Below are positions 1,842 to 52,621 of a DNA stretch of 64,000 nt, piece after piece. This DNA is from Candidatus Saccharimonadota bacterium. GTDB lineage: Bacteria; Patescibacteriota; Saccharimonadia; Saccharimonadales; SLHW01. The translations under genes were made by a program, and so were the position numbers. The stretch's first letter is position 1, and the number at the start of each line of letters is the position of its first letter. The stretch covers positions 236,309 through 300,308 of the forward strand of contig JAGXIU010000002.1 of the NCBI GenBank assembly GCA_024635455.1. Direction: 5' to 3'. The notes beneath the pieces were generated by a model that searched no databases, was not told the origin of the DNA, and saw only the letters and a list, made by a program, of their open reading frames with translations.

Positions 1842-2050
1842 TGGTAAAATATGAGTGGACGAGAAGAATCGTCAGAACATCATAAATTAATCTGCATATT
1901 CATGTAGTGTAGGCATTGATCTCTAGGACCGTATTTGGTCGCTTGGTCTTAGAGGGAGTCAGTAGCGAAACCGGACACTGCACTCTTGTTTACATAGAGT
2001 GTCGCACTAGTTGTCCCCTTCGCGCGTAAGCGTTAAGGGGATTTTTTTAT
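1842..2050 (+). promoter_or_regulatory. Candidate leader or small RNA: extended -10 box, about 190 nt of structured sequence, then an intrinsic terminator just before the CAP-domain gene
   Basis: TGGTAAAAT at 1842-1850. Hairpins include CACTCT/AGAGTG. Terminator hairpin CCCCTT..AAGGGG at 2015-2040 is followed by a T-run at 2042-2048. Confidence 0.3.
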
Positions 2051-5457: not shown

Positions 5458-5534
5458 GGGTCCATAGCTCAGCTGGTTAGAGCACCTGCCTTTTAAGCAG
5501 GGTGTCGTGGGTTCGAGCCCCACTGGACCCTCCA
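5458..5534 (+). tRNA. tRNA-Lys (anticodon UUU), CCA encoded
   Basis: Cloverleaf read by hand: GGGTCCA TA GCTC AGCTGGTTA GAGC A CCTGC CTTTTAA GCAGG GTGTC GTGGG TTCGAGC CCCAC TGGACCC T CCA. Confidence 0.95.
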
Positions 5535-5574
5535 AAGAAAAAACAGTCACACTGCGTGACTGTTTTTTCTTTGG
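5535..5574 (+). terminator. Intrinsic terminator whose stem begins with the tRNA CCA
   Basis: CCAAAGAAAAAACAGTCAC ACTGC GTGACTGTTTTTTCTTTGG. Confidence 0.8.
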
Positions 5575-5575
5575 A

Positions 5576-5827
5576 CTGATCTAATGGCTCGAACCCACGA
5601 CAGAGATTCGCCGATAAGGCGAAGATGTAGGTCGTGTGTTCGTGGAGCGACGCAGCGAGAAAATAAGCGCGTAGCATTTATTTCGAGCAAGGAAGTGGAT
5701 ATAACAAGCCCGTCACAAGCGGGCGCGTGCTGACCCACTGGCAATTTTGTAAGCGGCCAACTCTTGCGAACTTGTTTGCAAAGATGTTGCGACGGGGTCG
5801 CGGAGCGTGACCGAGCGCCACTGGACC
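5576..5827 (+). repeat. T-arm-mimic structured module, copy Lys(UUU)-1 (longest copy)
   Basis: GGCTCGAACCCACGACA (5586-5602) is the reverse complement of 17 nt of the adjacent tRNA T-arm. It pairs with GTCGTGTGTTCG (5631-5642) around the inner hairpin TTCGCC GATAA GGCGAA. TGGAGCGA and a CGCAG..CGAG box follow. Homologous to 52275-52401, 32461-32605 (minus) and 43696-43823 (minus). Confidence 0.6.
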
Positions 5828-5844
5828 CTCCAATAAAAATGCTT
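5828..5844 (+). repeat. Direct repeat of the tRNA-Lys(UUU) 3' end (displaced att-like fragment)
   Basis: CCACTGGACCCTCCAA is identical to 5519-5534 plus the next base. It is followed by the hairpin CCAATAAAAAT...ATTTTTATTGG. Confidence 0.9.
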
Positions 5845-5955
5845 CATATTGTATGTGGTATTTTTATTGGAGAGAACCAAGGAGTAAACTTAATTTTAGA
5901 AAGTAGCCACGTTTTTGTGAAGCTATTATCGATACGAGCCGCTAATCGCCAGAAG

Positions 5956-6666
5956 TTATGTTTTGTATATTTCTTCTATTTCAATTGACTCAATAACGTG
6001 AAGCAACTCCTTGTAGTCGGCCGAGTCTTTGAATGACTCAAGAAAACCTTTGCCCGTATCGCCCCAATAGTCATTATTTATATCGAATTCAGTGTATGCA
6101 CCCAATTCAGCGATTAAGACATTTGAGTTATCGAGCACGATACCGTTTTTAAAATCATTGCTACCAACAGTAACATCGGGGTCATTACTTAGGTAAAAGG
6201 CGGAAAAACGAGAAGATGATGTCGTATCTTCCTGCATTGCGAACACTACCTTCGCATCTGGATAGTGAATGTTGTTAATCGGTATAATATCAGACACGGA
6301 ACATGTCCAAGCCTCACCCGTATCCTCATTGCTGCCAGCACACATTGGTTGCTCAAAATCTGGCTGCGTTGCTCGCATGAACCGTAGCACAAGAGCATTC
6401 TGATCATGAAAGCCGGTAACCGTAATACTGTTCGTGGAACCATAGTTCGCTAGCGCAAGAGACGCGGGAAAATAAAAACTAAAGTAATTATTGCTATATT
6501 TTGTAATCTGATCTTCTGAGTTAGTGCTATTCTCGAGAGCAGTGTTTTCGGTGACTGTCTTAGTGTCTTCAGCTGTGTAAACTCTGTATCCCGCAAAACT
6601 TACAACAACGACTATGATGACCGCGAGAATGAGTAAATAAGAGAATCCTTGATTATTTAGACGCAT
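5956..6666 (-). CDS. Hypothetical membrane-anchored protein
   Basis: 236 aa with an N-terminal TM segment (FSYLLILAVIIVVVVSFAGY). No motif recognised. It lies between two tRNA-Lys 3' remnants. Confidence 0.55.
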   Translation of the reverse strand: MRLNNQGFSYLLILAVIIVVVVSFAGYRVYTAEDTKTVTENTALENSTNSEDQITKYSNNYFSFYFPASLALANYGSTNSITVTGFHDQNALVLRFMRATQPDFEQPMCAGSNEDTGEAWTCSVSDIIPINNIHYPDAKVVFAMQEDTTSSSRFSAFYLSNDPDVTVGSNDFKNGIVLDNSNVLIAELGAYTEFDINNDYWGDTGKGFLESFKDSADYKELLHVIESIEIEEIYKT

Positions 6667-6827
6667 GATGCTTCTTTCTTTTTGATTATATTGATCTTAG
6701 AACAGAGTGTTTGGGCTGATAAGGTGGTAAACCACATAGAGCCTCCTAAGCGTTAAGTATAGTATTAATGATACAACTCAACAAGAAATGCTTCGGCTCA
6801 GCTGTAAAGTAAGTTGTCATAATTTTG

Positions 6828-6948
6828 TGGCTCAAACTCACGACACGAGCTACCAAAGGTGGTGTCCGGGTTATGCCTGAAGCTAAAATCAAGGCACAAG
6901 TCACGCCACTCGTAGTTTTAGCGAAGGACGATTACTTCACTGGACCCT
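6828..6948 (+). repeat. Decayed T-arm-mimic module plus second tRNA-Lys(UUU) 3' remnant
   Basis: TGGCTCAAACTCACGACAC (6828-6846) pairs with GGTGTCCGGGTT (6861-6872). CACTGGACCCT (6938-6948) matches the tRNA 3' end. Confidence 0.45.
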
Positions 6949-6966
6949 TCATACCCCTAATGCCTG

Positions 6967-7008: not shown

Positions 7009-7632
7009 ATGTCAACGATAAAGAACTATATTGCGAACTCAACTGGTGAATTAGATAACCTAGTTGAAATGATCGATAGATCATTAAGTAGGGTAATCCC
7101 AGTTGCCCAGAAGGAATTGGAAGCTGATAAGATAGACATCATTTTTATTTCAGCAGCTGGTTTAGCTATTCCAGAATACGGTATGGGGGGTAATTCTCCT
7201 GGGCCAAACCATCTGTATGTTTCGTTTGACCCCAACTCGGATAAAATCACAATAGACAAATTAGACGAAACGCTATTTCACGAAATTCACCATTGTATGA
7301 GATGGCGCGATCCTGGCTACGGAGAAACTTTAGGTGAAGCGATGATTTCAGAAGGCATAGCTTGCTTATACGAAGAAGAGCACAGTGGTAAAGCACCAAT
7401 CTATGCCAAAGTCGGTCTAAAGGCAGACCAATTGGTTAAAGCAAAAAAACTGATTAAAACCAAAACATATAATCATAGTGAGTGGTTTTTTGGCGCTAAA
7501 AACATAGATAGATGGTTTGGATATAGCTTAGGTTATAAAATCTGTAAAGAACACTCACTCATAACAGGCAAGAAAGCTTCGGAACTAGTACATACTTCAG
7601 CACAAGAAATATTACGTACTAGTTATAAATAA
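7009..7632 (+). CDS. Putative zinc metalloprotease-like protein (HExxH; DUF2268-like)
   Basis: The HEIHH motif in LFHEIHHCMRW. No SD; appears leaderless. Confidence 0.45.
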   Translation: MSTIKNYIANSTGELDNLVEMIDRSLSRVIPVAQKELEADKIDIIFISAAGLAIPEYGMGGNSPGPNHLYVSFDPNSDKITIDKLDETLFHEIHHCMRWRDPGYGETLGEAMISEGIACLYEEEHSGKAPIYAKVGLKADQLVKAKKLIKTKTYNHSEWFFGAKNIDRWFGYSLGYKICKEHSLITGKKASELVHTSAQEILRTSYK

Positions 7633-30652: not shown

Positions 30653-30654
30653 AT

Positions 30655-30688
30655 AAACCCGACAGACTATAGTGTGTCGGGTTTATTA
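30655..30688 (+). terminator. Intrinsic terminator after ymdB
   Basis: AAACCCGACA GACTATAGTG TGTCGGGTTT ATT. Confidence 0.75.
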
Positions 30689-30726
30689 CCCCTGTTTCAT
30701 ATGATTTTAGGCTATGTTTTATTACA

Positions 30727-30738
30727 GGGTGAGAGGAC
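30727..30738 (-). repeat. Third, short remnant of the tRNA-Pro 3' end
   Basis: GGGTGAGAGGAC matches 37099-37110 and 32449-32460. Decayed module-like sequence follows at 30739-30900. Confidence 0.4.
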
Positions 30739-31147
30739 AGCGCTCTGGCTTCCGCGCAGGGCTATATCCACTCCTGCGTTACACAGTCGTTTCACAAACC
30801 TCCGCTCGACAGTGCTCGCTTACGAGGTTCTTGCACCCTAACAGCGACCAAGCAAAAACCCCCAGGGCGGCTTACTGGTATCCAGAAGCATAGATGCAAG
30901 CTAGTAACCGCTAGTTGCAGAGGTACCGCTAATGATGACAGGGATTTCATTATAGCCCCCAATGATGAGGACTTGATAGCTCTTGTAGATGTCGTTAAGA
31001 ACAAGCATGCTGGCAAAAGCTTAAATTTGTTGCGTAAACGCTTTAATGAGCTAACACTTTAGAAAATGAAAACACCCTTGAGTTTTTCATGGGTGTAGTG
31101 CTTTTTAATTCTATAAGCTAAAGTTTTTTGAGCTAGTTAGTAGTTGG

Positions 31148-31696
31148 CTATTGCTGTTCAGGAATAGCTGCGCTAATCCAGCCAAGAAGCTCGTCTACTT
31201 CTTGAGGAGGAAGAGCCTCGCCAATGTTTTGCCTATTTAATTCAGCAGCACGCTCCACTGCTCCAAGAGCAGTGGAGGTAAGTGCGTCACCAAGTAGTTC
31301 TTCGGCCCTACGAAGCAACTGTTCATCCTCCTTTTCTCCAGGCATAGGTTCATAATCTCCTGGGTAGTCTATAACTTGACGCTTCATAACTACACCGTCT
31401 CTGGCGATAAAGTCAGTCTGAATATGGCCCCCGCTTTCAAACACTGTAACTCTATGCCCACTAAAAGTAGACCACTTATCCAAAGCTTCAGTTGCTTCTT
31501 CAGGAATAGGTCGCTCCAAGTAAACTCTTGAAGCTGTTGGGCAGTGGCTAAGCGTGCCAGCAGGTATAAGTGCAAGGCTTTCTTCGTGGTCGCGTACAAT
31601 ACCTCCTCTGTTGGAAGTGCCTTCTGTGAACTTGTTGTCTATAGCAAGGGTAAGCATCTCTGCTGTATTTGGCTGTGTAATTTCTGGGTTTGTCAT
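31148..31696 (-). CDS. Hypothetical protein (in the older tRNA-Pro-linked remnant)
   Basis: Start taken at MTNPEITQ. No motif recognised. Confidence 0.45.
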   Translation of the reverse strand: MTNPEITQPNTAEMLTLAIDNKFTEGTSNRGGIVRDHEESLALIPAGTLSHCPTASRVYLERPIPEEATEALDKWSTFSGHRVTVFESGGHIQTDFIARDGVVMKRQVIDYPGDYEPMPGEKEDEQLLRRAEELLGDALTSTALGAVERAAELNRQNIGEALPPQEVDELLGWISAAIPEQQ

Positions 31697-32442
31697 GGGT
31701 AATACATTAACATAATAAGCATGTAATGTCAATAATTCTTATGATACGACCACACTATGCCAGATAATATAAACGGTAATATTTTTAAGCTACCAGAGAG
31801 CGAATACAAGGTATCTGAACTGACTGACCACTACGCAAGTATTACAAAAGGCAGCCTGAGAATACTTCCTAAAGAAAAAACGTCGCTATGTGATGTACGG
31901 CAAAATACTGTCTAAAAGTATTAGAATGAAACACCTAACTTCTCATATAGCGTGGGCTATTCAACACCTGACATAGAACACGGATAAAGCCTACAAAAAG
32001 TACATCGAGTGACCAGAGGGGTAACTATCTGCTGATAAAGACAGAGCAAACCGTAAATTAGCAGAGGCTAAGCGTTAACTTACAAAACAGGAGGGCAATT
32101 ATTCTAAGTATCAGAACTCACAGCGAGACGGCCCTATAACATAAAAGAAACATCATAAGGGCAAATTAGAACATCATCAAGAGCTGATTAACAGTGGTGA
32201 GCCGAGTGTGAAACAGGCTAAGAATGAGGTCGAGATGCTTAGTGGGTCATTGCCCTCGCAGAAACAATTTGTTGAACATATCGTTCGTATCTGAAAACAG
32301 TCAGCAATACTAAGGATTTGATTGAGGAGGGGTTAGTCTACAAAGAAGTAGTGTTGAACCTCTGTCCTGTAGACGATGTCATCTCTGTTATAAAGCTAAA
32401 TCCACCATACAATTTGATGGTGAATTTAGACAAAGTTCCTCT

Positions 32443-32460
32443 TGGCCGGGGTGAGAGGAC
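32443..32460 (-). repeat. Direct repeat of the tRNA-Pro 3' end (att-like)
   Basis: TGGCCGGGGTGAGAGGAC versus TGGTCGGGGTGAGAGGAC at 37093-37110 (17 of 18 identical). Confidence 0.85.
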
Positions 32461-32605
32461 AATTTAGGCCGGGCACTATTCAGTGCTCGGCTTCATCTCC
32501 GCTCAAACTTTCTCGATGCTAGCATCTGCGAGAGTTTTCGCTCCACCGAACCGTCCGACCTCTGCAACACTTCGTGTTGCGGTCGGAGGTTCAAGCCACT
32601 CTCAA
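32461..32605 (-). repeat. T-arm-mimic structured module, copy Pro(UGG)
   Basis: Read on the minus strand: TGGCTTGAACCTCCGACC (antisense of the tRNA-Pro T-arm), GCAACAC GAAG GTGTTGC, GGTCGGACGGTTCGG, TGGAGCGA, TCTCGCAGATGCTAGCATCGAGAAAGT. The last box is near-identical to 52352-52378. Confidence 0.6.
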
Positions 32606-33113
32606 GCAATGAAAAAGCCGCCCCTGACAGGACGGCTCTTTCATTGGTCGAGTAGGAGCGATTACGCTTGAACAGGTTGAGCCACTACTGTTATCGCTTA
32701 AAGATTACTGGTGTAGAAGCTCAAATATGCGTGAAATGTCTAGCTTACTCAAACATCCACGAGTTGCATCAACAGTAGCAGAATATGAGCTTTAACAGGG
32801 GTAGATTAGCACTTTCCTATTGATAAACGTGATGCGACTTGAACAAGATAACAATACTAATTGGACATTAAGTCCATTTCATGTCGTACATTGTATGTTG
32901 TACGAACCGTGCTAACAGGGGTAGTGGTATATTTTTAGCAACAAAATGGCTTGTCAAGTGCTTGTGTTATTTTCGCCACCCCTGTTTTTTACATATTATA
33001 CAATGATGGTTTCGATTGCAGTGTCAGCTCCATTGTACTAGTCAATTATTCTTACTCGCTGTAATATTTTGATAGCATTTAGCGTTACTATACAATTAAA
33101 GTAAAGATTTCCT

Positions 33114-33584
33114 ATGAATAACGATAAACCACACTTTTCAATTGGCGATATAGATAAAGAATCAATTATTAAACGTGCAGAGAGAAAAGTCTCCCGAACA
33201 AACACTGATCCTTATTATCAAAATGTACAGGTTGAAGTAATGATTGAACGTGAGATGGAGCAAGTCTTTAAGAAGGATTTTATGGGTTCAACAACCGACT
33301 TGTTGCGTTTAGGTGATTCTGGTGCTGCGATTGGCTATTTAGTTTTTGTCTTCATTCTGCTGATTACATCTGACAACGGCTTGAGCTTGGTGCAGTTCTT
33401 TTTCTTAGTAGTAGTTACCATTATGTTGTTAATCGCAGTACATGGCACAATGAAGGAGCGGATCGAGTCTGCTTTTAAATCAGGAGCACATAGTGATTGG
33501 CATCTATATGAGCCTGAATACCGAGATGCGTTATGGGAAATAAGGCAACGCAAAGAAAATACTAGACCTGAACGAAACCACTAA
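33114..33584 (+). CDS. Hypothetical membrane protein (island cargo)
   Basis: 156 aa with two central TM segments. Confidence 0.5.
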   Translation: MNNDKPHFSIGDIDKESIIKRAERKVSRTNTDPYYQNVQVEVMIEREMEQVFKKDFMGSTTDLLRLGDSGAAIGYLVFVFILLITSDNGLSLVQFFFLVVVTIMLLIAVHGTMKERIESAFKSGAHSDWHLYEPEYRDALWEIRQRKENTRPERNH

Positions 33585-33661
33585 GCTACAAGCATAGAGA
33601 TAGTTATTCCATATAAAAAGAGACGACATGTAGCCGTCTCTTTAGTTATTGTTGCTGTTTT

Positions 33662-34231
33662 TTATTTAACCTGAACGATAGCACGGTCCGCATTAAATCC
33701 ATTCGGTTTCCAGATAACATACTGGTGTCCTTCTTCGACTGGTACTTCAAAAACAATCTGTCCTGATGCTTTTCCGCCAGCAACCATGTCTCCTGAGCTT
33801 AATGAGTTATCCACGGTAGCAAATGCTCCATCAAGAACTTGTCCTTCCGCAGTCTGAATACGAAAATCGAACACATTGTATGGCTTAGTTTCGTTACTGG
33901 TGTTCTCTAGTGCAACATCAGCAATAACATAGGTCTTTCCACTTCCAGCTTGTTCAAACTCACTTATAGTAGTCTTATAAACTACGTTAGAAAGAGTCAT
34001 CTTAACTCCGTCAACTGTAGCCGCTTCGCTTGGCAATACTTCTACGTCTTTGGGTTGCTTGTCTGCACGGTCGTCAAACCTGTATGTCTTCTCTCCACTA
34101 GCAGTGTTATTTTCGCCACCACTATTGTTTCCTGAATTATCACTACCACCACCTGCTGCACTTGCAATTACTGCAATCACAATAAAAGCCAATATGACTG
34201 TCAAAATTTTATGTTTCTTAAACCAACTCAC
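33662..34231 (-). CDS. DUF4352-like secreted/anchored protein (island cargo)
   Basis: N-terminal TM, G/S/N-rich linker, then YVIADVALENTSNE...FDFRIQ...ASGQIVFEVP, typical of DUF4352. Confidence 0.6.
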   Translation of the reverse strand: MSWFKKHKILTVILAFIVIAVIASAAGGGSDNSGNNSGGENNTASGEKTYRFDDRADKQPKDVEVLPSEAATVDGVKMTLSNVVYKTTISEFEQAGSGKTYVIADVALENTSNETKPYNVFDFRIQTAEGQVLDGAFATVDNSLSSGDMVAGGKASGQIVFEVPVEEGHQYVIWKPNGFNADRAIVQVK

Positions 34232-34361
34232 TATAAATCTCCTTATTAGTATTAACTATAATATACATTTAATTTCCTTACCTGTAAATATACCCTAAAT
34301 GATGCAAATAATAAACAGTTGGTTTATGTAACTATCTGTTTATTATTTCTACGCTTAGTAC

Positions 34362-34748
34362 ATGACCGAACAGAAACTAATGAAAGCCTTTGGTAAACGT
34401 GTTGCTGAGGTCCGAAAAAACAAAGGCATTACTCAACAACAACTAGCACATGATATTGGTATGAGTGTTGTCGCAATCGCATACATTGAAACTGGTAAAC
34501 GTTGGGCAAGGCTAGGAACACTCAATAAAATAGCCAAACGCCTAAAAGTCGATATTAGCGATTTATTTACAGGCATATACATAACTCAACTTTTGTCCAA
34601 AAACCTCGCTAAACGCCTCTCTGTACGTCACAGAGGGCTTAATTGTCTTTCATTAAATGTATCTGTAATGTGCAGAGCAAGACCCTACGATTTTTTTATC
34701 CAATTTTTTACTTATCAACGCCATTTATTAGCTTGTACAACATGCTGA
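34362..34748 (+). CDS. XRE-family HTH regulator with an atypical long C-terminal tail
   Basis: FGKRVAEVRKNKGITQQQLAHDIGMSVVAIAYIETGKR...LNKIAKRLKVDISDLF. The last ~55 aa are low quality and Cys/Leu-rich. Confidence 0.6.
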   Translation: MTEQKLMKAFGKRVAEVRKNKGITQQQLAHDIGMSVVAIAYIETGKRWARLGTLNKIAKRLKVDISDLFTGIYITQLLSKNLAKRLSVRHRGLNCLSLNVSVMCRARPYDFFIQFFTYQRHLLACTTC

Positions 34749-34796
34749 TTTCTTACATCAAAATAATTAAAAACCTAACGAAAACATGGGTGTTTT

Positions 34797-35030
34797 CTAG
34801 GTAAGTGTAAAGAAACTGAACACTACCTTATTTTGGTTTTCTTTTGCCGCAAGCATCTTCTCCCTAAACACTTCATTATTACGCATATAGTAGAAGAAAG
34901 TGGTACGACTTATGCCTGTCCAGCGACAAGCCTCGCTTATTGTGCTGTTGTGTTGTATTGCATCTTGAAGCCTTAGCATGGTTGTATAGGTGACTTTGGG
35001 CTTTCGTCCTATAGCTTTTCTTATTTCCAT
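34797..35030 (-). CDS. Small HTH protein (resolvase-HTH / terminase-small-subunit-like); possible directionality factor
   Basis: 77 aa containing ISEACRWTGISRTTFFYYM. Divergent from the recombinase promoter. Confidence 0.45.
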   Translation of the reverse strand: MEIRKAIGRKPKVTYTTMLRLQDAIQHNSTISEACRWTGISRTTFFYYMRNNEVFREKMLAAKENQNKVVFSFFTLT

Positions 35031-35098
35031 TTTACTCCTTTGTTTTCTGCGTTACCCCTGTTCTAATTATACAGAAGTAGCATTACCATAAAATATAC

Positions 35099-35127
35099 TT
35101 GACAATGCTTATGGTAAAGAGTATAAT
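35099..35127 (+). promoter_or_regulatory. Consensus sigma-70 type promoter facing the recombinase gene
   Basis: TTGACA (35099-35104), a 17-nt spacer, TATAAT (35122-35127). The 8-bp outer stem AGACCCCA/TGGGGTCT (35137-35184) follows directly. Confidence 0.6.
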
Positions 35128-35512
35128 TAGTAGTATAGACCCCACCAAGAAATCCTTTTCAGGAAGGTTTTTGACATGGGGTCTTAACTTATTTTAAGAC
35201 TTCATAAAAACCTTAGCGAACTAATAACACCTATCGCACTGAGAAAACTCATGGGGGTGAAGAACTTAAAACACTTCACTGGTCAAAGAAAGAACCAGTG
35301 TGGACTACGATGCAAAACTCGATGTTACATCAAATCAAAATACACAAAACAAAGATAGTGACAGCTTATTTAAGTTGTTGGAGTTGCTTAAAAAGGCAGA
35401 TATTAAAAACAATCTAGCCGACTTAAATGAAACAACTATGAGCGACAATAACGGTGGTCGTATAGAGCTTTAATCCTCGCACTCGTACTTTGACTAAGCT
35501 ACAATATATAGT

Positions 35513-37114
35513 ATGTATGAAGACGAAGAAGAACCACAAATAGATATAACAACGCTTCGGTATGTATTGTATGCACGAAAATCTACTGATGATCCAAAGC
35601 GTCAGGTGCGTTCTATTGATGACCAGATTGATGAATGTGAAGTCTTAGCAAGACGTAACGGAATGCGTATTGTCAAAAAGATTACAGAGGAAAAATCAGC
35701 AAGAAAAGCTGGAAATCGACCTAAGTTCGACCAGATGATTCAAGACATTGAGGCAGGTAAATATGATGGGGTTGTTGCTTGGAACCCTGATAGGCTCGCT
35801 CGGAATATGACAGAGGGCAGTCGTATACTGAGCCTTATTGATGCAGGTCGTATTGTTGACCTAAAGTTCGCAACACACCACTTTGTTAACGACTCAAGTG
35901 GACAGATGCTCCTCGGCATATCTTTCGTCATGGCTGATTACTACTCAAGAAGACTTTCAGAAAACGTCAATAGAGGCGTTAAGAAAGGCTTGAAAGAGGG
36001 TAAGTCATCAGGAACTCCAAAGCACGGCTATATTAGACATGAAGACGGTATTTATCGACCAGATGATGAAGATGGCTGCAAGAACTTTGAACTAATTTGT
36101 GATGCATGGAAGATGCGTAAAAAAGGTGATTCACTCAAAACGATTGCAAATTACATGAACAAAAATGGTTACGCACGTATTTATAAAGAAAACGCTGAAA
36201 AAGCAGGTCAAAAAGTAAATATGAGCGACAAGATACTAAGTAATACTGTATTTCCAGACCCCTTTTATTATGGAATCCTAATTCAGACAGATAAGCCTGT
36301 AGACCTTAGAGAGATTGATGAATACAATTTTAAGCCAGCTACCGATGAGGACACATACAATTACATACAGCAGATGACAGGTCGCTCTACTAAAAACACC
36401 AAACGTAGTGTATTCAAACCTTTAGTGGAAATGGTCTATTGTGCGTACTGCAATTCAAAGATGTACCCACAAACACCACAGTCCTCAAACAAGACAAGAA
36501 AATTATCATATAGGTGTGACAATGCACACTGTCAGCGTAAGAATAAAGAGCTTAAACTTAGCCAGTCAGTTAGAGGAATAGTCATATTTAAGTTCATGTA
36601 CGAAATGCTTGAGAATATAGAAGTCAATGAGAGCGATTACGAGAAGTTACGCAATAAGCTAATAGTAAGCAACCAAGCCAATGCACACAAACAGGCTATA
36701 GAGATTCACTCGCTTCAAGGTTCACTTAAGAGTATCGAGAAAGACATCAAGGATCGTAGCTTGAAGATTATTACATTAGACAAGAATAGTCCTATCTACA
36801 GAACTAATGAAACTCATATCAACGAACAGGGTGTCAGAGCTAACGAACTACGTAATGAAATTGATAAACTTACAGAACAGCGAACAAATCCAGACGAAGA
36901 CATTATGAGCTTTGAGGAGTTCTTGAACGTAATAAAAAACGCCAGCAAACACCTTAAAGTTGCTGACGTTGTACTAAAAGACCACATTGCTCGTTTAATC
37001 TACTTGAACGTACATGTAGATAGCGAAAATGTGGTCTCCTACCAGATGAAGGAGCCATTTAAGACTTACTTCAAATCGTATAAAATCTTTACTGGTCGGG
37101 GTGAGAGGACTTGA
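35513..37114 (+). CDS. Large serine recombinase (integrase)
   Basis: Resolvase domain YARKSTDD...SIDDQ...DRLAR, recombinase domain, zinc ribbon CAYCNSKM...YRCDNAHCQ and a long coiled coil. The stop TGA at 37112-37114 lies inside the tRNA-Pro T-loop. Confidence 0.9.
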   Translation: MYEDEEEPQIDITTLRYVLYARKSTDDPKRQVRSIDDQIDECEVLARRNGMRIVKKITEEKSARKAGNRPKFDQMIQDIEAGKYDGVVAWNPDRLARNMTEGSRILSLIDAGRIVDLKFATHHFVNDSSGQMLLGISFVMADYYSRRLSENVNRGVKKGLKEGKSSGTPKHGYIRHEDGIYRPDDEDGCKNFELICDAWKMRKKGDSLKTIANYMNKNGYARIYKENAEKAGQKVNMSDKILSNTVFPDPFYYGILIQTDKPVDLREIDEYNFKPATDEDTYNYIQQMTGRSTKNTKRSVFKPLVEMVYCAYCNSKMYPQTPQSSNKTRKLSYRCDNAHCQRKNKELKLSQSVRGIVIFKFMYEMLENIEVNESDYEKLRNKLIVSNQANAHKQAIEIHSLQGSLKSIEKDIKDRSLKIITLDKNSPIYRTNETHINEQGVRANELRNEIDKLTEQRTNPDEDIMSFEEFLNVIKNASKHLKVADVVLKDHIARLIYLNVHVDSENVVSYQMKEPFKTYFKSYKIFTGRGERT

Positions 37115-37169
37115 ACCTCCGACCTCACGGTCCCAAACCGCGCGCGCTAGCCAACTGCGCCACACCCCG
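37093..37169 (-). tRNA. tRNA-Pro (anticodon UGG), CCA encoded
   Basis: CGGGGTG TG GCGC AGTTGGCTA GCGC G CGCGG TTTGGGA CCGTG AGGTC GGAGG TTCAAGT CCTCT CACCCCG A CCA. Confidence 0.93.
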
Positions 37170-37337
37170 ATAGGTGTAATTGATACGTTTTGTATCAGCA
37201 GACTATATTCTACCACCTCAAGAGGAAATTTCCATACCCTGCAGCGCAATAACTTTAGATACTAAAAAATATGGTGAGCAAACACCCCCGATACGTGGAT
37301 ATCGGAAAAGCCAGTCCGGTAAGCTATACTACGTATT

Positions 37338-43289: not shown

Positions 43290-43376
43290 ATATTCTTAAA
43301 GATTTGTACGTTGGTCTTACACTGTATCTCATTGGCTAGAGCGCCTAAAGCGCCATTACTATTCCTGACCTATCGG

Positions 43377-43399
43377 TCGCCAACTGAGATACATCCGCC
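43377..43399 (-). repeat. Duplicated 5' fragment of tRNA-His (pseudo-tRNA piece)
   Basis: The minus strand reads AATATGGCGGATGTATCTCAGTTGGCGA, against AATATGGCGGGTGTAGCTCAGTTGGTTA at the true gene. An inverted partner GTATCTCATTGG lies at 43324-43335. Confidence 0.6.
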
Positions 43400-43678
43400 A
43401 TATTGTTATCAGAAAACAGGGGTAATTATATCGTGTTTTATGCTCTGCCGCAACAGCCCTATAGAAGTCATAAAATCACTAGAGAACGTACGCGCAGGAT
43501 ATGTTTCTGAAGTGCAAATATGTCGATAGCTTGGACTGGATGACATTCTTAATCTACTAATGATGCTCAAAGCAAGTTTCTGTGCGTGATGCTCAATCCC
43601 CAAACTTGCCTGAGGGGTTGAACCTCGCCCACGCGAGCACCCATAGAAAAAGTCGGCCACAAGTGCCGACTTTTTCTA

Positions 43679-43695
43679 TGGTACCCCGGGAGGGA
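43679..43695 (-). repeat. Direct repeat of the tRNA-Arg(UCU) 3' end
   Basis: TGGTACCCCGGGAGGGA is identical to 43862-43878. It is followed (minus sense) by the hairpin CCATAGAAAAAGTCGGC...GCCGACTTTTTCTATGG. Confidence 0.9.
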
Positions 43696-43823
43696 TGACA
43701 TCGTTGCTTCTGCGCTGTTACTCGGAGCGAGCTCCTGCGTGACAGCTTGTATCACCGAACCACCCGACTACTATCTTTGCCTTCGGCAAATCCAGGTCGG
43801 TGAACCGAATCCTACTCGACACT
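43696..43823 (-). repeat. T-arm-mimic structured module, copy Arg(UCU)
   Basis: The minus strand reads GGATTCGGTTCACCGACC, TTTGCC GAA GGCAAA, GTCGGGTGGTTCGG, then CACGCAGGAGCTCGCTCCGAGTAAC. Confidence 0.6.
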
Positions 43824-43861
43824 CCAAATAAAAAGCCGGTCATTTAGACCGGTTTTTTATT
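43824..43861 (-). terminator. Terminator hairpin starting at the tRNA-Arg CCA
   Basis: CCAAATAAAAAACCGGTC TAAAT GACCGGCTTTTTATTTGG (minus sense). Confidence 0.8.
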
Positions 43862-43939
43862 TGGTACCCCGGGAGGGATTCGAACCCCCGACCTAATGGT
43901 TAGAACCCACTTGCTCTAATCCAACTGAGCTACCGGGGC
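43862..43939 (-). tRNA. tRNA-Arg (anticodon UCU), CCA encoded
   Basis: GCCCCGG TA GCTC AGTTGGATTA GAGC A AGTGG GTTCTAA CCATT AGGTC GGGGG TTCGAAT CCCTC CCGGGGT A CCA. Confidence 0.9.
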
Positions 43940-50702: not shown

Positions 50703-50727
50703 AACTAAATATTAACAAAAAAAAGAT

Positions 50728-50774
50728 CCTGCGACCACTGTCTTCCCTCCGGCAAATCGAATCTCGCTCGATAG
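50728..50774 (-). repeat. Truncated T-arm-mimic module fragment downstream of tRNA-Arg(UCG)
   Basis: The minus strand reads GAGCGAGATTCGATTTGCCGGAGGGAAGACAGTGGTCGCAGG. It is related to the Arg(UCU) copy and preceded by the CCA-hairpin CCAAATAAAGAGTCGGCC...GCCGGCTTTTTTATTGGG. Confidence 0.4.
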
Positions 50775-50811
50775 CCCAATAAAAAAGCCGGCACAAGGCC
50801 GACTCTTTATT

Positions 50812-50888
50812 TGGTGCACCGGGTAGGATTCGAACCTACGACACCTGGTTCCGAAGACCAGTGCTCTAATCCACTGAGCTACCGGTGC
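50812..50888 (-). tRNA. tRNA-Arg (anticodon UCG), CCA encoded
   Basis: GCACCGG TA GCTC AGTGGATTA GAGC A CTGGT CTTCGGA ACCAG GTGTC GTAGG TTCGAAT CCTAC CCGGTGC A CCA. Confidence 0.92.
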
Positions 50889-52104: not shown

Positions 52105-52161
52105 AATTTCAGTTGAAATAACAGGGATAAGTTGCTATAGTCTCATCTGTTAGTAGCAATC

Positions 52162-52238
52162 GGGCCAGTAGCTCAGCTGGTTAGAGCACCTGCCTCTTAA
52201 GCAGGGTGTCGAGGGTTCGAGTCCCTCCTGGCCCTCCA
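52162..52238 (+). tRNA. tRNA-Lys (anticodon CUU), CCA encoded
   Basis: GGGCCAG TA GCTC AGCTGGTTA GAGC A CCTGC CTCTTAA GCAGG GTGTC GAGGG TTCGAGT CCCTC CTGGCCC T CCA. Confidence 0.95.
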
Positions 52239-52274
52239 ATTCATGAAGCCACCTTGTGTGGCTTTTTGAATTGG

Positions 52275-52401
52275 ATAGACGAGCTCCGAACCTGAGACAC
52301 AGATTCGCCACCTGGCGAAGATGTAAGTCGAGTGGTTCGTTCGTAAGGATCTCTCGCAGAAGCTTGCTTCGAGAAAGTGACGCAACGTGCCGCGGGCAGC
52401 C
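52275..52401 (+). repeat. T-arm-mimic structured module, copy Lys(CUU)-1
   Basis: CTCCGAACCTGAGACAC, TTCGCC ACCT GGCGAA, GTCGAGTGGTTCG, then TCTCGCAGAAGCTTGCTTCGAGAAAGT (52352-52378). Confidence 0.6.
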
Positions 52402-52419
52402 CCCTCCTGGCCCTCCAAT
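52402..52419 (+). repeat. Direct repeat 1 of the tRNA-Lys(CUU) 3' end
   Basis: CCCTCCTGGCCCTCCAAT is identical to 52223-52240. The hairpin AAAACGCCCACC...GGTGGGCGTTTT follows. Confidence 0.9.
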
Positions 52420-52462
52420 ATAAAACGCCCACCTTTTCGTTACCGGTGGGCGTTTTATATTG

Positions 52463-52599
52463 ATTGTCTTGAATGGCTCGACTCCTCGAAACGCCAAAAA
52501 GGTGTCGTGGGTGAAGATTTCCAGTGGCAATCCGCAAGAGAATCTTCACCTGACAGCAGTGCTGTCACGGCGGAAGTTCTGGGCCCGCAGAATGTGGGC
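52463..52599 (+). repeat. T-arm-mimic structured module, copy Lys(CUU)-2 (more diverged)
   Basis: AATGGCTCGACTCCTCGAAACGCC ... GGTGTCGTGGGTGAAG, plus further hairpins (GAAGATT..AATCTTC, CTGACAGCA..TGCTGTCA). Confidence 0.5.
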
Positions 52600-52621
52600 G
52601 AGTCCCTCCTGGCCCTCCAAT
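52600..52621 (+). repeat. Direct repeat 2 of the tRNA-Lys(CUU) 3' end
   Basis: GAGTCCCTCCTGGCCCTCCAAT is identical to 52219-52240 (22 nt). Confidence 0.9.

Follow-up and report, generated by a model that had tools for sequence, protein, structure and literature searches.

Insertion units at tRNA-Lys(CUU) and at other tRNA genes

In a Candidatus Saccharimonadota bacterium, the tRNA-Lys(CUU) gene is followed by two tandem units, each of which starts with a hairpin at the preceding CCA and ends in a copy of the tRNA 3′ end. The gene lies in a stretch of 64,000 nucleotides (nt; hereafter the window; assembly GCA_024635455.1, contig JAGXIU010000002.1, positions 236,309-300,308 of the forward strand), in which seven tRNA genes were identified by ARAGORN, in agreement with Rfam. 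Units of this kind measure 150-300 bases and are gene-less apart from one ORFan. They are insertions, polymorphic between related genomes, that accrete in tandem by the tRNA, with subfamilies at different tRNAs, and they contain a module of three helices (P1, P2 and P3), the fold of which has been retained under selection after the copies diverged. The features at tRNA-Lys(CUU) are as follows, where A′ and A are the antisense and sense arms of P1.

52113-52141: promoter-like site of tRNA-Lys(CUU) (promoter scan)
52162..52238, plus strand: tRNA-Lys(CUU), the putative target gene (ARAGORN; Rfam, 72 bits)
52236..52274, plus strand: terminator-like, element-borne hairpin of unit Lys(CUU)-a, with its stem starting from the CCA of the tRNA (CCAATTCA...TGAATTGG; sequence, fold)
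52277..52378, plus strand: three-helix module of Lys(CUU)-a (covariance model 91 bits, E 4e-22; pair counts), with A′ at 52281-52299, P2 at 52304-52319, A with a bulged T at 52327-52339, and P3 at about 52349-52378, with CGCAG at 52355
52402..52419, plus strand: att-type direct repeat of Lys(CUU)-a, identical to tRNA nt 61-76 plus AT (0 mismatches)
52415..52621, plus strand: older unit Lys(CUU)-b, of another subfamily (from the sequence; without a covariance-model match), with the hairpin at 52415-52462, the antisense arm at 52474-52489, a Lys(UUU)-like sense arm at 52501-52512 and a 22 nt 3′ copy at 52600-52621

The raw sequence bears out the initial annotation in its description of two tandem units with CCA-anchored hairpins (52236-52274 and 52415-52462), both of them long, A/T-flanked and with a stem that starts at CCA. 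The exact copies of the tRNA 3′ end that it reported are likewise present, one of 18 nt at 52402-52419, including the AT after the CCA, and one of 22 nt at 52600-52621; there are no mismatches over 16 nt at 52402 and at 52604. Unit b belongs to another subfamily, is not recognised by the model and has a sense arm that matches Lys(UUU) better than Lys(CUU).

Syntenic loci of related genomes were retrieved via SHMT homologues (SHMT identity to the window genome: L112, 87 %; L104, 84 %; L105/L106, 82 %; L107/L108, 78 %). In L105/L106 and L107/L108, the same tRNAs (Pro, Arg-UCU, His, Arg-UCG and Lys-CUU) are followed by the hairpin only, without units. In L104, a variant unit with a 28 nt tRNA copy is present behind tRNA-Pro and two tandem units behind tRNA-Arg(UCU), the first of which has lost P2, while by eye the distal one is similar to the second, degenerate unit of the window. 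Behind the Arg(UCG) position of L112 there is a new hairpin, a unit and an 18 nt copy, ATCCTACCCGGTGCACCA, followed by a hairpin of the window type, which is about 90 % alike (by eye) to that adjoining tRNA-Arg(UCG) in the window. Comparison of L112 with the window therefore indicates that the piece gained or lost consists of hairpin, module and tRNA 3′ copy, at the tRNA 3′ end. The presence/absence comparison that had been proposed thus finds units missing from the same tRNAs in L105 and L107 and one extra unit in L112.

In every array, those at Lys(CUU), Lys(UUU) and Arg(UCU) of the window and that at Arg(UCU) of L104, it is the distal copy that is more degenerate, a pattern in keeping with successive insertions beside the tRNA, as known from tycheposons. 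Similar tRNAs are connected by shared subfamilies (Lys/Lys, Arg/Arg and Pro/Met). The hairpin and GCTCGATA linker of the first L112 Arg(UCG) unit match those of the first L104 Arg(UCU) unit, and the window Pro unit and a Met unit of another genome (L073) are identical in the sense arm and similar in the variable region. Miniature integrative elements with a target-specifying arm had been suggested; the insertion nature of the units is supported by the repeats, the tandem units and the presence/absence differences, whereas target specification is not. The remaining units of the window, with the tRNA genes that they adjoin, are listed here.

5458..5534, plus strand: tRNA-Lys(UUU) (ARAGORN, Rfam)
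5532..5832, plus strand: unit Lys(UUU)-1 (sequence; model 65.6 bits, module match 5577-5692), with the hairpin at 5532-5574, A′ at 5585-5602, P2 at 5607-5623, A at 5631-5642, a long P3/variable part and the 3′ copy at 5818-5832
5830..6951, plus strand: unit Lys(UUU)-2, with cargo, the hairpin at 5830-5870, the antisense arm at 6828-6846 and a degenerate 3′ copy at 6936-6951 (13/16)
5956-6666, minus strand: ORFan cargo gene of Lys(UUU)-2, 236 aa, bracketed by tRNA-Lys(UUU) 3′-end copies
32443..32647, minus strand: Pro unit (sequence; model 78.4 bits, module match 32507-32604), with the hairpin at 32647-32607, TGG and A′ at 32598-32581, P2 at 32580-32564, A at 32559-32547, P3 at about 32537-32506 and an 18 nt 3′ copy at 32460-32443 (1 mismatch)
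43862..43939, minus strand: tRNA-Arg(UCU), the last gene of a Gly-Arg pair (ARAGORN, Rfam)
43679..43864, minus strand: unit Arg(UCU)-1 (sequence; model 87.9 bits, module match 43716-43818), with the hairpin at 43864-43824, a linker, A′ at 43812-43795, P2 at 43790-43776, A at 43768-43756, P3 at about 43746-43712 and an 18 nt 3′ copy at 43696-43679
43560..43681, minus strand: hairpin and degenerate second Arg(UCU) unit, resembling unit 2 of L104 (orthologous by eye)
50717..50814, minus strand: Arg(UCG) hairpin (50814-50776) and truncated unit, with a P2-like part, the sense arm GTCGCAGGATC and then a T-run

Homologous modules had been reported behind four other tRNAs. Those of Lys(UUU) and Arg(UCU) are confirmed, that of Arg(UCG) persists as a remnant, and that of Pro does not directly follow its tRNA, being 4.5 kb away. 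That the truncated Arg(UCG) unit is homologous to the one at Arg(UCU) is seen by eye only, and the covariance model gives no match. Two units had been overlooked, Lys(UUU)-2 at 6828-6951 beyond the cargo gene and the second Arg(UCU) unit at about 43640-43560 (minus strand), and (T)GGAGCGA, given as a shared step of the module, is not general. The cargo gene has only a weak PsbP_2 match and zero relatives among 5.8 billion protein clusters; since it sits between tRNA-Lys(UUU) 3′ copies, units can carry cargo. Apart from the serine recombinase described below, the genes of the window are those of an ordinary chromosome (DnaJ, BipA, RuvABC, type IV pilus, RecA, RNase Y, SHMT and PFK).

The covariance model, built from seven module copies, gives scores of 65-91 bits (E 1e-15 to 1e-22) in the window and, with filters off, finds only the four full copies; its best score in unrelated DNA is 19.7 bits over 699 kb. 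Sequence collections were scanned with one strict motif pattern, which matches three times in the window against 0 expected, so that counts are a lower bound and absence is weak evidence. Among 185,579 species genomes, 95 loci matched, 92 of them by chance in GC-rich coding DNA. The three true further copies, at 86-92 bits, are in metagenome-assembled genomes of Saccharibacteria, behind tRNAs Asn (L060), Met (L073) and His (L092), immediately downstream of the tRNA and with the same layout as the units of the window. There were three matches in JGI metagenome contigs and nine in IMG/VR, all of them false. In total, there are seven strong model hits (65-92 bits) in four genomes and three weaker ones (20-29 bits) in L104 and L112, behind tRNA-Arg(UCU) and behind the tRNA-Arg(UCG) position, respectively. 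All follow a tRNA gene (Lys, Lys, Arg, Pro, Asn, Met, His and Arg), with Pro displaced by 4.5 kb. The covariance-model scan suggested in the initial annotation thus finds the module solely in Saccharibacteria and always behind a tRNA, and the family would appear to be confined to few Saccharibacteria as detected here, which is a lower bound.

In L092, at about 6150-6225 (minus strand), the 3′ copy of the His unit and a hairpin are followed by a fragment, GATCCACGACCCATATTT, in which the last part of the antisense arm and the first part of P2 recur; this is probably a further decayed unit. Short-read Logan contigs of the window genome (L096, L097 and L127) and of its relative L112 break inside units or at the tRNA, which suggests that the units are multi-copy there and under-represented in contig collections. 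The Logan contigs of SRR13628066 and SRR13628065, two runs in which the window genome occurs, end within units. No family of Rfam 15 matches the module, either at the gathering threshold or permissively (E up to 10), blastn against phage and plasmid collections gave no relatives of it, and literature searches returned no description of such small units at tRNA 3′ ends. The group I introns reported from Patescibacteria tRNA genes lie in the anticodon loop and are unrelated.

It could be that the units are attR-side arms, left by deletion from larger tRNA-integrated islands, and were never mobile as small units. One unit still holds a gene, decay is visible (the truncated Arg(UCG) unit, the degenerate distal copies and unit 1 of L104), and real islands, the large-serine-recombinase (LSR) elements, do target tRNA genes of this lineage. 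A precedent is provided by the tycheposons of Prochlorococcus, in which later integrations at one tRNA site displace those already present deeper into the island and partial tRNAs mark older events (bioRxiv 10.1101/2020.12.28.424599). However, a uniform compact layout, free of gene fragments, is seen in at least 12 units, deletion would need an identical stopping place each time, the extra unit of L112 is complete and small, and the compensatory changes described below reflect selection on the fold after the copies had diverged. Derivation of the units as dead remnants is therefore unlikely.

The folded module and its tRNA-derived arms

The structure of the module was set by hand on six full copies, with six to seven full-length copies in support of it. 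P1 is formed by the antisense arm paired with the sense arm, P2 caps P1, and P3, about 14 bp long, is an irregular hairpin in which the internal loop CGCA/GAG and a C-A mismatch are invariant. Across the six copies, 88.6 % of the pair cells are paired, compared with 34-43 % when the partners are slid, 13 of the 31 pairs are changed on both sides, and none of 500 shuffles reached any of the pairing measures. Pair counts, slid controls and shuffles therefore support all three helices. P1 contains a bulged base at one fixed position, before GGTTCG, in all six copies. The outer stem of P3, between the sequence before CGCAG and that after CGAG, covaries (AAACTCT/AGAAAGTTT, AAGCTCT/AGAAAGCTT and GCTGTCA/TAACAGC). 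Compensatory changes had been noted from the letters in the inner hairpin (TTCGCC/GGCGAA in Lys, TTTGCC/GGCAAA in Arg and GCAACAC/GTGTTGC in Pro) and in a box helix (AAGC/GCTT in Lys-CUU, ATGC/GCAT in Pro and GAGC/GCTC in Arg-UCU), and both sets are confirmed. The CGCAG...CGAG box exists, but not as a separate box with a 4-bp stem, since it is the middle part of the longer hairpin P3.

Retention of the fold despite sequence change argues for RNA or single-stranded DNA, as opposed to a protein site on double-stranded DNA. As to the strand, G-U and A-C counts are 8 and 4, and folding z-scores are unremarkable, ranging from -0.5 to -3.6 on the tRNA-sense strand and from +0.6 to -1.6 on the opposite strand. 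The promoter scan found no promoter inside any unit on either strand, and therefore only read-through from the tRNA promoter could transcribe the module. A hammerhead-like or K-turn-like core and an acceptor 5′ strand completing a tRNA-like minihelix were checked by eye and dropped. Small ORFs (open reading frames) on the opposite strand are not conserved between units.

Three segments of each unit derive from the tRNA. The antisense arm covers tRNA nt about 45-60(62) and the sense arm nt 46-57, both of them copies of the 5′ half of the T-arm, and the 3′ copy covers nt 59-76; the left edge of the 3′ copy is at nt 59 in seven units, 61 in two, 56/57 in two and 49 in one. Read from the sequences, the antisense arm meets the 3′ copy within the 3′ part of the T-loop, at nt 58-61. 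The 3′ copies are exact or near-exact over 15-22 nt in the window and over 28 nt in the Pro unit of L104, and the exact antisense matches of 17 nt to tRNA-Lys(UUU) and 15 nt to tRNA-Pro that had been described are present. Compared with 24 distinct tRNAs, the antisense arm best matches the cognate tRNA in 10 of 12 units and the sense arm in 8 of 12. The arms thus usually track the neighbouring tRNA, as had been claimed, but not in relic arms. The Met unit retains a Pro-type CTTGAAC, the antisense arm of Lys(CUU)-a is Arg(UCG)-like, disrupting the middle of P1, and the sense arm of Lys(CUU)-b is of the Lys(UUU) type; unit 2 of L104 and unit 2 of L112, which form one subfamily, have a generic CGAACC/GGTTCG P1 without a tRNA-specific part. 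Because some arms hold the sequence of another tRNA, the arms are inherited and slowly adjusted; copying of the arms from the target at insertion was rejected on account of the relic arms.

Across the hairpin, the antisense arm mirrors the T-arm in position, with an offset of 0 or 1 nt in six of nine units, so that the 3′ part of the tRNA, the hairpin, the linker and the arm form one long quasi-palindrome. With this geometry, the arm could pair with its upstream tRNA in a read-through RNA or belong to a symmetric DNA site, and neutral template-switch correction of a quasi-palindrome would account for it as well. At the attR junction, a T-stem-like inverted repeat was considered by eye, but it occurs only in some units and was dropped.

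Extremely unlikely is an origin of the units as decayed inverted duplications of whole tRNA genes, or as parts of an LSR element. The arms are indeed tRNA-derived sequence. However, no pseudo-tRNA is detected within the units by the tRNA model (both strands, E up to 10), Rfam tRNA and ARAGORN match true genes only, tRNA homology is limited to nt about 45-62 antisense and nt 46-57 and 59-76 sense, and P2 and P3 are unrelated to tRNA sequence. The tRNA-length homology that the initial annotation had named as evidence for such duplications is thus absent. Against derivation from an LSR element, at the far end of which the Pro unit sits, are the four other tRNA-Pro LSR elements without a module, the Pro unit of L104 without an LSR element, and the fact that LSR elements have ends of their own, as described below.

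The constant scaffold, with arms that are usually cognate (10 of 12), would be compatible with the module being a nucleic-acid target-recognition device for a recombinase, although such a role is distinctly unlikely. As a guide, the antisense arm would pair with the tRNA-sense strand at nt about 45-60 and the 3′ copy with the opposite strand at nt 59-76, flanking the exchange point, as in IS110 bridge RNAs. As a mimic, P1 would imitate the target duplex in the form of a folded single strand, in the manner of integron attC or CTX-phage attP. It is similarly doubtful that the recombinase would read the constant P2/P3 scaffold, that exchange would be positioned at T-loop nt 58-61 and that arm changes would retarget the element. 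The meeting of antisense arm and 3′ copy at nt 58-61, the conserved bulged base in P1, the covarying helices, which indicate a folded strand under selection, and the mirroring of the T-arm across the hairpin are in keeping with a device of this kind. On the other hand, no candidate protein was found among the window ORFs, there is no internal promoter, neither the G-U versus A-C counts nor the z-scores single out a strand, the arms of several units are mismatched or come from another tRNA, and the unit-2 subfamily of L104 and L112 has the generic P1 only. In bridge RNAs the guides do not pair together, whereas the arms of the units form P1; in attC and CTX the exchange point should be inside the hairpin, whereas the boundary of the unit is the 3′ copy; and Rfam gives no match. 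The guide-like RNA of the initial annotation is therefore not supported, with no promoter inside the units, arms that track the tRNA imperfectly and no recombinase linked.

It is very unlikely that the module is instead a host RNA, that is, a functional trailer RNA of tRNA operons that would, for example, control processing through pairing with the T-arm, inherited vertically and kept matched. The sole available promoter, that of the tRNA, is oriented like the unit, pairing of the antisense arm with the upstream T-arm across the hairpin would be in register, and the fold is conserved. Nevertheless, units are missing from the same tRNAs in related genomes and decayed in others, and tandem copies, a cargo gene and 3′-end duplications would be unexpected for a trailer. 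The terminator-like hairpin separates the tRNA from the module, and the strict pattern gave, as a lower bound, three true copies among the species genomes.

The Pro unit and the large-serine-recombinase element

The Pro module is separated from tRNA-Pro by 4.5 kb, with an LSR element in between.

37093-37169, minus strand: tRNA-Pro
32651..37092: LSR integrative element of about 4.4 kb, between tRNA-Pro and the Pro unit, outside the unit family
35513-37114, plus strand: LSR recombinase gene, 533 aa, with Resolvase and zinc-ribbon domains

This element also encodes an HTH protein and a DUF4352 protein. The end of the recombinase gene overlaps tRNA-Pro, the stop codon falling inside the tRNA. Homologues occupy the tRNA-Pro 3′ end in four other Saccharibacteria loci (L098, L099, L100 and L102), and the LSR elements in Saccharibacteria tRNA-Pro form a family of 4-8 kb. 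The far end of all five elements reads GTTCAAG-N16-CGACCA, compared with GTTCAAG-N11-CGACCA in tRNA-Pro. The attP and attB half-sites of LSR enzymes differ by a 5-bp outward shift of the distal motif, and the 5 nt outward shift of the T-loop-like motif at the LSR far end is as expected for attP versus attB half-sites. An LSR-type spacing shift of 5 nt in the small units was considered by eye and dropped.

The covariance model found no module in L098, L099, L100 or L102. In L104, tRNA-Pro is directly followed by the same hairpin (CCAATGAAAGAaCCGTCC...) as that of the window Pro unit and by a unit, without a recombinase element. This arrangement indicates that the LSR element inserted between tRNA-Pro and a pre-existing unit. 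The module was therefore rejected as a part of the LSR element, four homologous elements being without it and the LSR ends being separately conserved. A check for co-occurrence with a recombinase family had been suggested, but none is linked to the units and the sole recombinase of the window, the LSR, belongs to this different element. Relative to the related genomes, the block of tRNA-Pro, LSR element and unit (window 30653-37337) is inverted between the YmdB and DUF1295 genes (L104 1600-2262, L105 1717-1981; tRNA-Pro there in the opposite orientation).

Three further observations were made. In the window, L104 and L105, and less clearly in L107, the terminator-like hairpins of tRNA genes typically start at the encoded CCA (CCAA-A-rich, GC stem, T-rich-TTGG); being the same on both strands, they could stop transcription both ways and, in the primary transcript, could sequester the CCA end. 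A conserved element is present about 50 nt upstream of tRNA-His in three genomes (window 43320-43400, L105 about 7352-7470 and L104 about 5795-5920, all minus strand). It follows a TATAAT-like box, starts like the 5′ part of tRNA-His (GGCGGaTGTAtCTCAGTTGG) and continues with CGACCGATAGGTCAG...GCGC(loop)GCGCTCTA.CCAA; it has no Rfam match and may be a leader or a tRNA-like RNA. Finally, a c-di-GMP-II riboswitch aptamer (GAG variant, 50 bits) lies at 1900-1985 (plus strand), just upstream of a gene for a CAP-domain secreted protein (2051-2794).

Proposed integration at tRNA 3′ ends and known systems

With moderate confidence, the units are interpreted as miniature non-autonomous integrative elements at tRNA 3′ ends, with the module as the attachment-side arm and a recombinase acting in trans. 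A unit consists of a terminator-like hairpin from the CCA, a short linker, the three-helix module, a variable stretch and a tRNA copy from nt 59 (±2) to the CCA. A circular form (module, tRNA 3′ copy and hairpin) would recombine with the tRNA gene at the boundary of the T-loop and the 3′ T-stem, the recombinase being supplied in trans, and integration, like its classical tRNA-targeted counterpart, would restore the tRNA and displace the old 3′ end. The module would work as a folded strand, either as read-through RNA from the tRNA promoter or as single-stranded DNA, and new targets would arise mostly among similar tRNAs (Lys/Lys, Arg/Arg and Pro/Met).

Several points weigh against integration in this form. 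The scan of about 40 window ORFs against Pfam found no recombinase, transposase or reverse transcriptase linked to any unit. With the one strict pattern, no autonomous relative was found in the five LSR loci, the species genomes, the JGI contigs or IMG/VR, but only the three further true copies. An excised circle or an empty site within one population was not observed. The left edge of the 3′ copy is variable (nt 49, 56/57, 59 and 61), no core-type inverted repeat is evident at the junction, and just six to seven full-length copies underlie the structure. Moreover, present-day activity is unproven, since some orthologous units have decayed (unit 1 at Arg(UCU) in L104).

tRNA genes are classic landing sites of integrating elements, and to our knowledge the tRNA-targeted elements described so far bring an integrase of their own and keep to a single tRNA. 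Integration of islands into the 3′ part of a tRNA keeps the gene intact and leaves a displaced partial copy at the far end (PMC4383910), and in tycheposons repeated integration at one tRNA leads to tandem arrays, with older elements pushed outward (bioRxiv 10.1101/2020.12.28.424599). The units resemble Islander-type islands and tycheposons in having an intact tRNA at one end and a displaced 3′ fragment of 15-28 nt, in the same orientation, at the other. Unlike these islands, they are without an integrase gene (ORF and Pfam scans found only the unrelated LSR), measure 150-300 bp, with the one ORFan as an exception, and contain a covarying module of three hairpins, one helix of which consists of antisense and sense copies of the T-arm; in addition, one unit family occupies at least eight tRNA species.

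Cis-mobilizable elements (CIMEs) have attL/attR-type repeats, are devoid of recombination genes and presumably depend on mobilisation in trans; they are recognised as deletion derivatives of known integrative and conjugative (ICE) or integrative and mobilizable elements (IME) in the same species. The units likewise have att-type repeats at both ends and no recombination genes, but no parent element was found for them in the scans with the one strict pattern, and they differ in their small size and uniform layout. Transposable elements of the miniature inverted-repeat type (MITEs) differ in that the ends of the units are a hairpin and a tRNA copy, without terminal inverted repeats, and in that the repeat length ranges from 15 to 28 nt.

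In integron attC and CTX-phage attP(+), an imperfect inverted repeat folds into a duplex-like form with an extra-helical base, the fold being kept over the sequence, and exchange takes place inside the hairpin. The bulged base of P1, present in six of six copies, the covarying fold and the cassette-like tandem accretion at a fixed site are similar. However, the boundary of the units, as seen from polymorphism, is the tRNA 3′ copy, 70-200 nt from the hairpin, and window ORF and Pfam scans identified no IntI- or Xer-type enzyme. The bridge RNA of IS110 and the seekRNA of IS1111 are a structured non-coding part of a mobile element beside a DEDD recombinase, with two guide loops that are not mutually paired. 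Segments of the units are, in a similar way, complementary to opposite strands flanking the exchange point, but there is no DEDD gene near the units, the T-arm segments pair as P1, the target copy is 15-28 nt and Rfam gives no match; no donor-matching loop was identified in the module. The far end of the LSR element also carries an imitation of the T-loop and acceptor end of tRNA-Pro, one that is read by protein. That site is about 50 bp in length, belongs to a gene-carrying element and has about 6 nt of crossover identity, whereas the small units have long exact repeats and no 5 nt shift.

What is present in these tiny, reduced genomes is thus a gene-less unit of 150-300 bp at no fewer than eight tRNA species, with a fold under selection and one helix that is a T-arm copy. 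Even as remnants alone, the units point to tRNA loci as the main places where these genomes gain genes, as the ORFan cargo illustrates. Participation of the arms in target choice would amount to a new system of nucleic-acid-assisted site-specific recombination. Should the units be mobile in their present form, they would rank as the smallest integrative elements described that target tRNAs, would provide a handle on an unknown recombinase of Saccharibacteria and would explain assembly breaks at tRNA loci.

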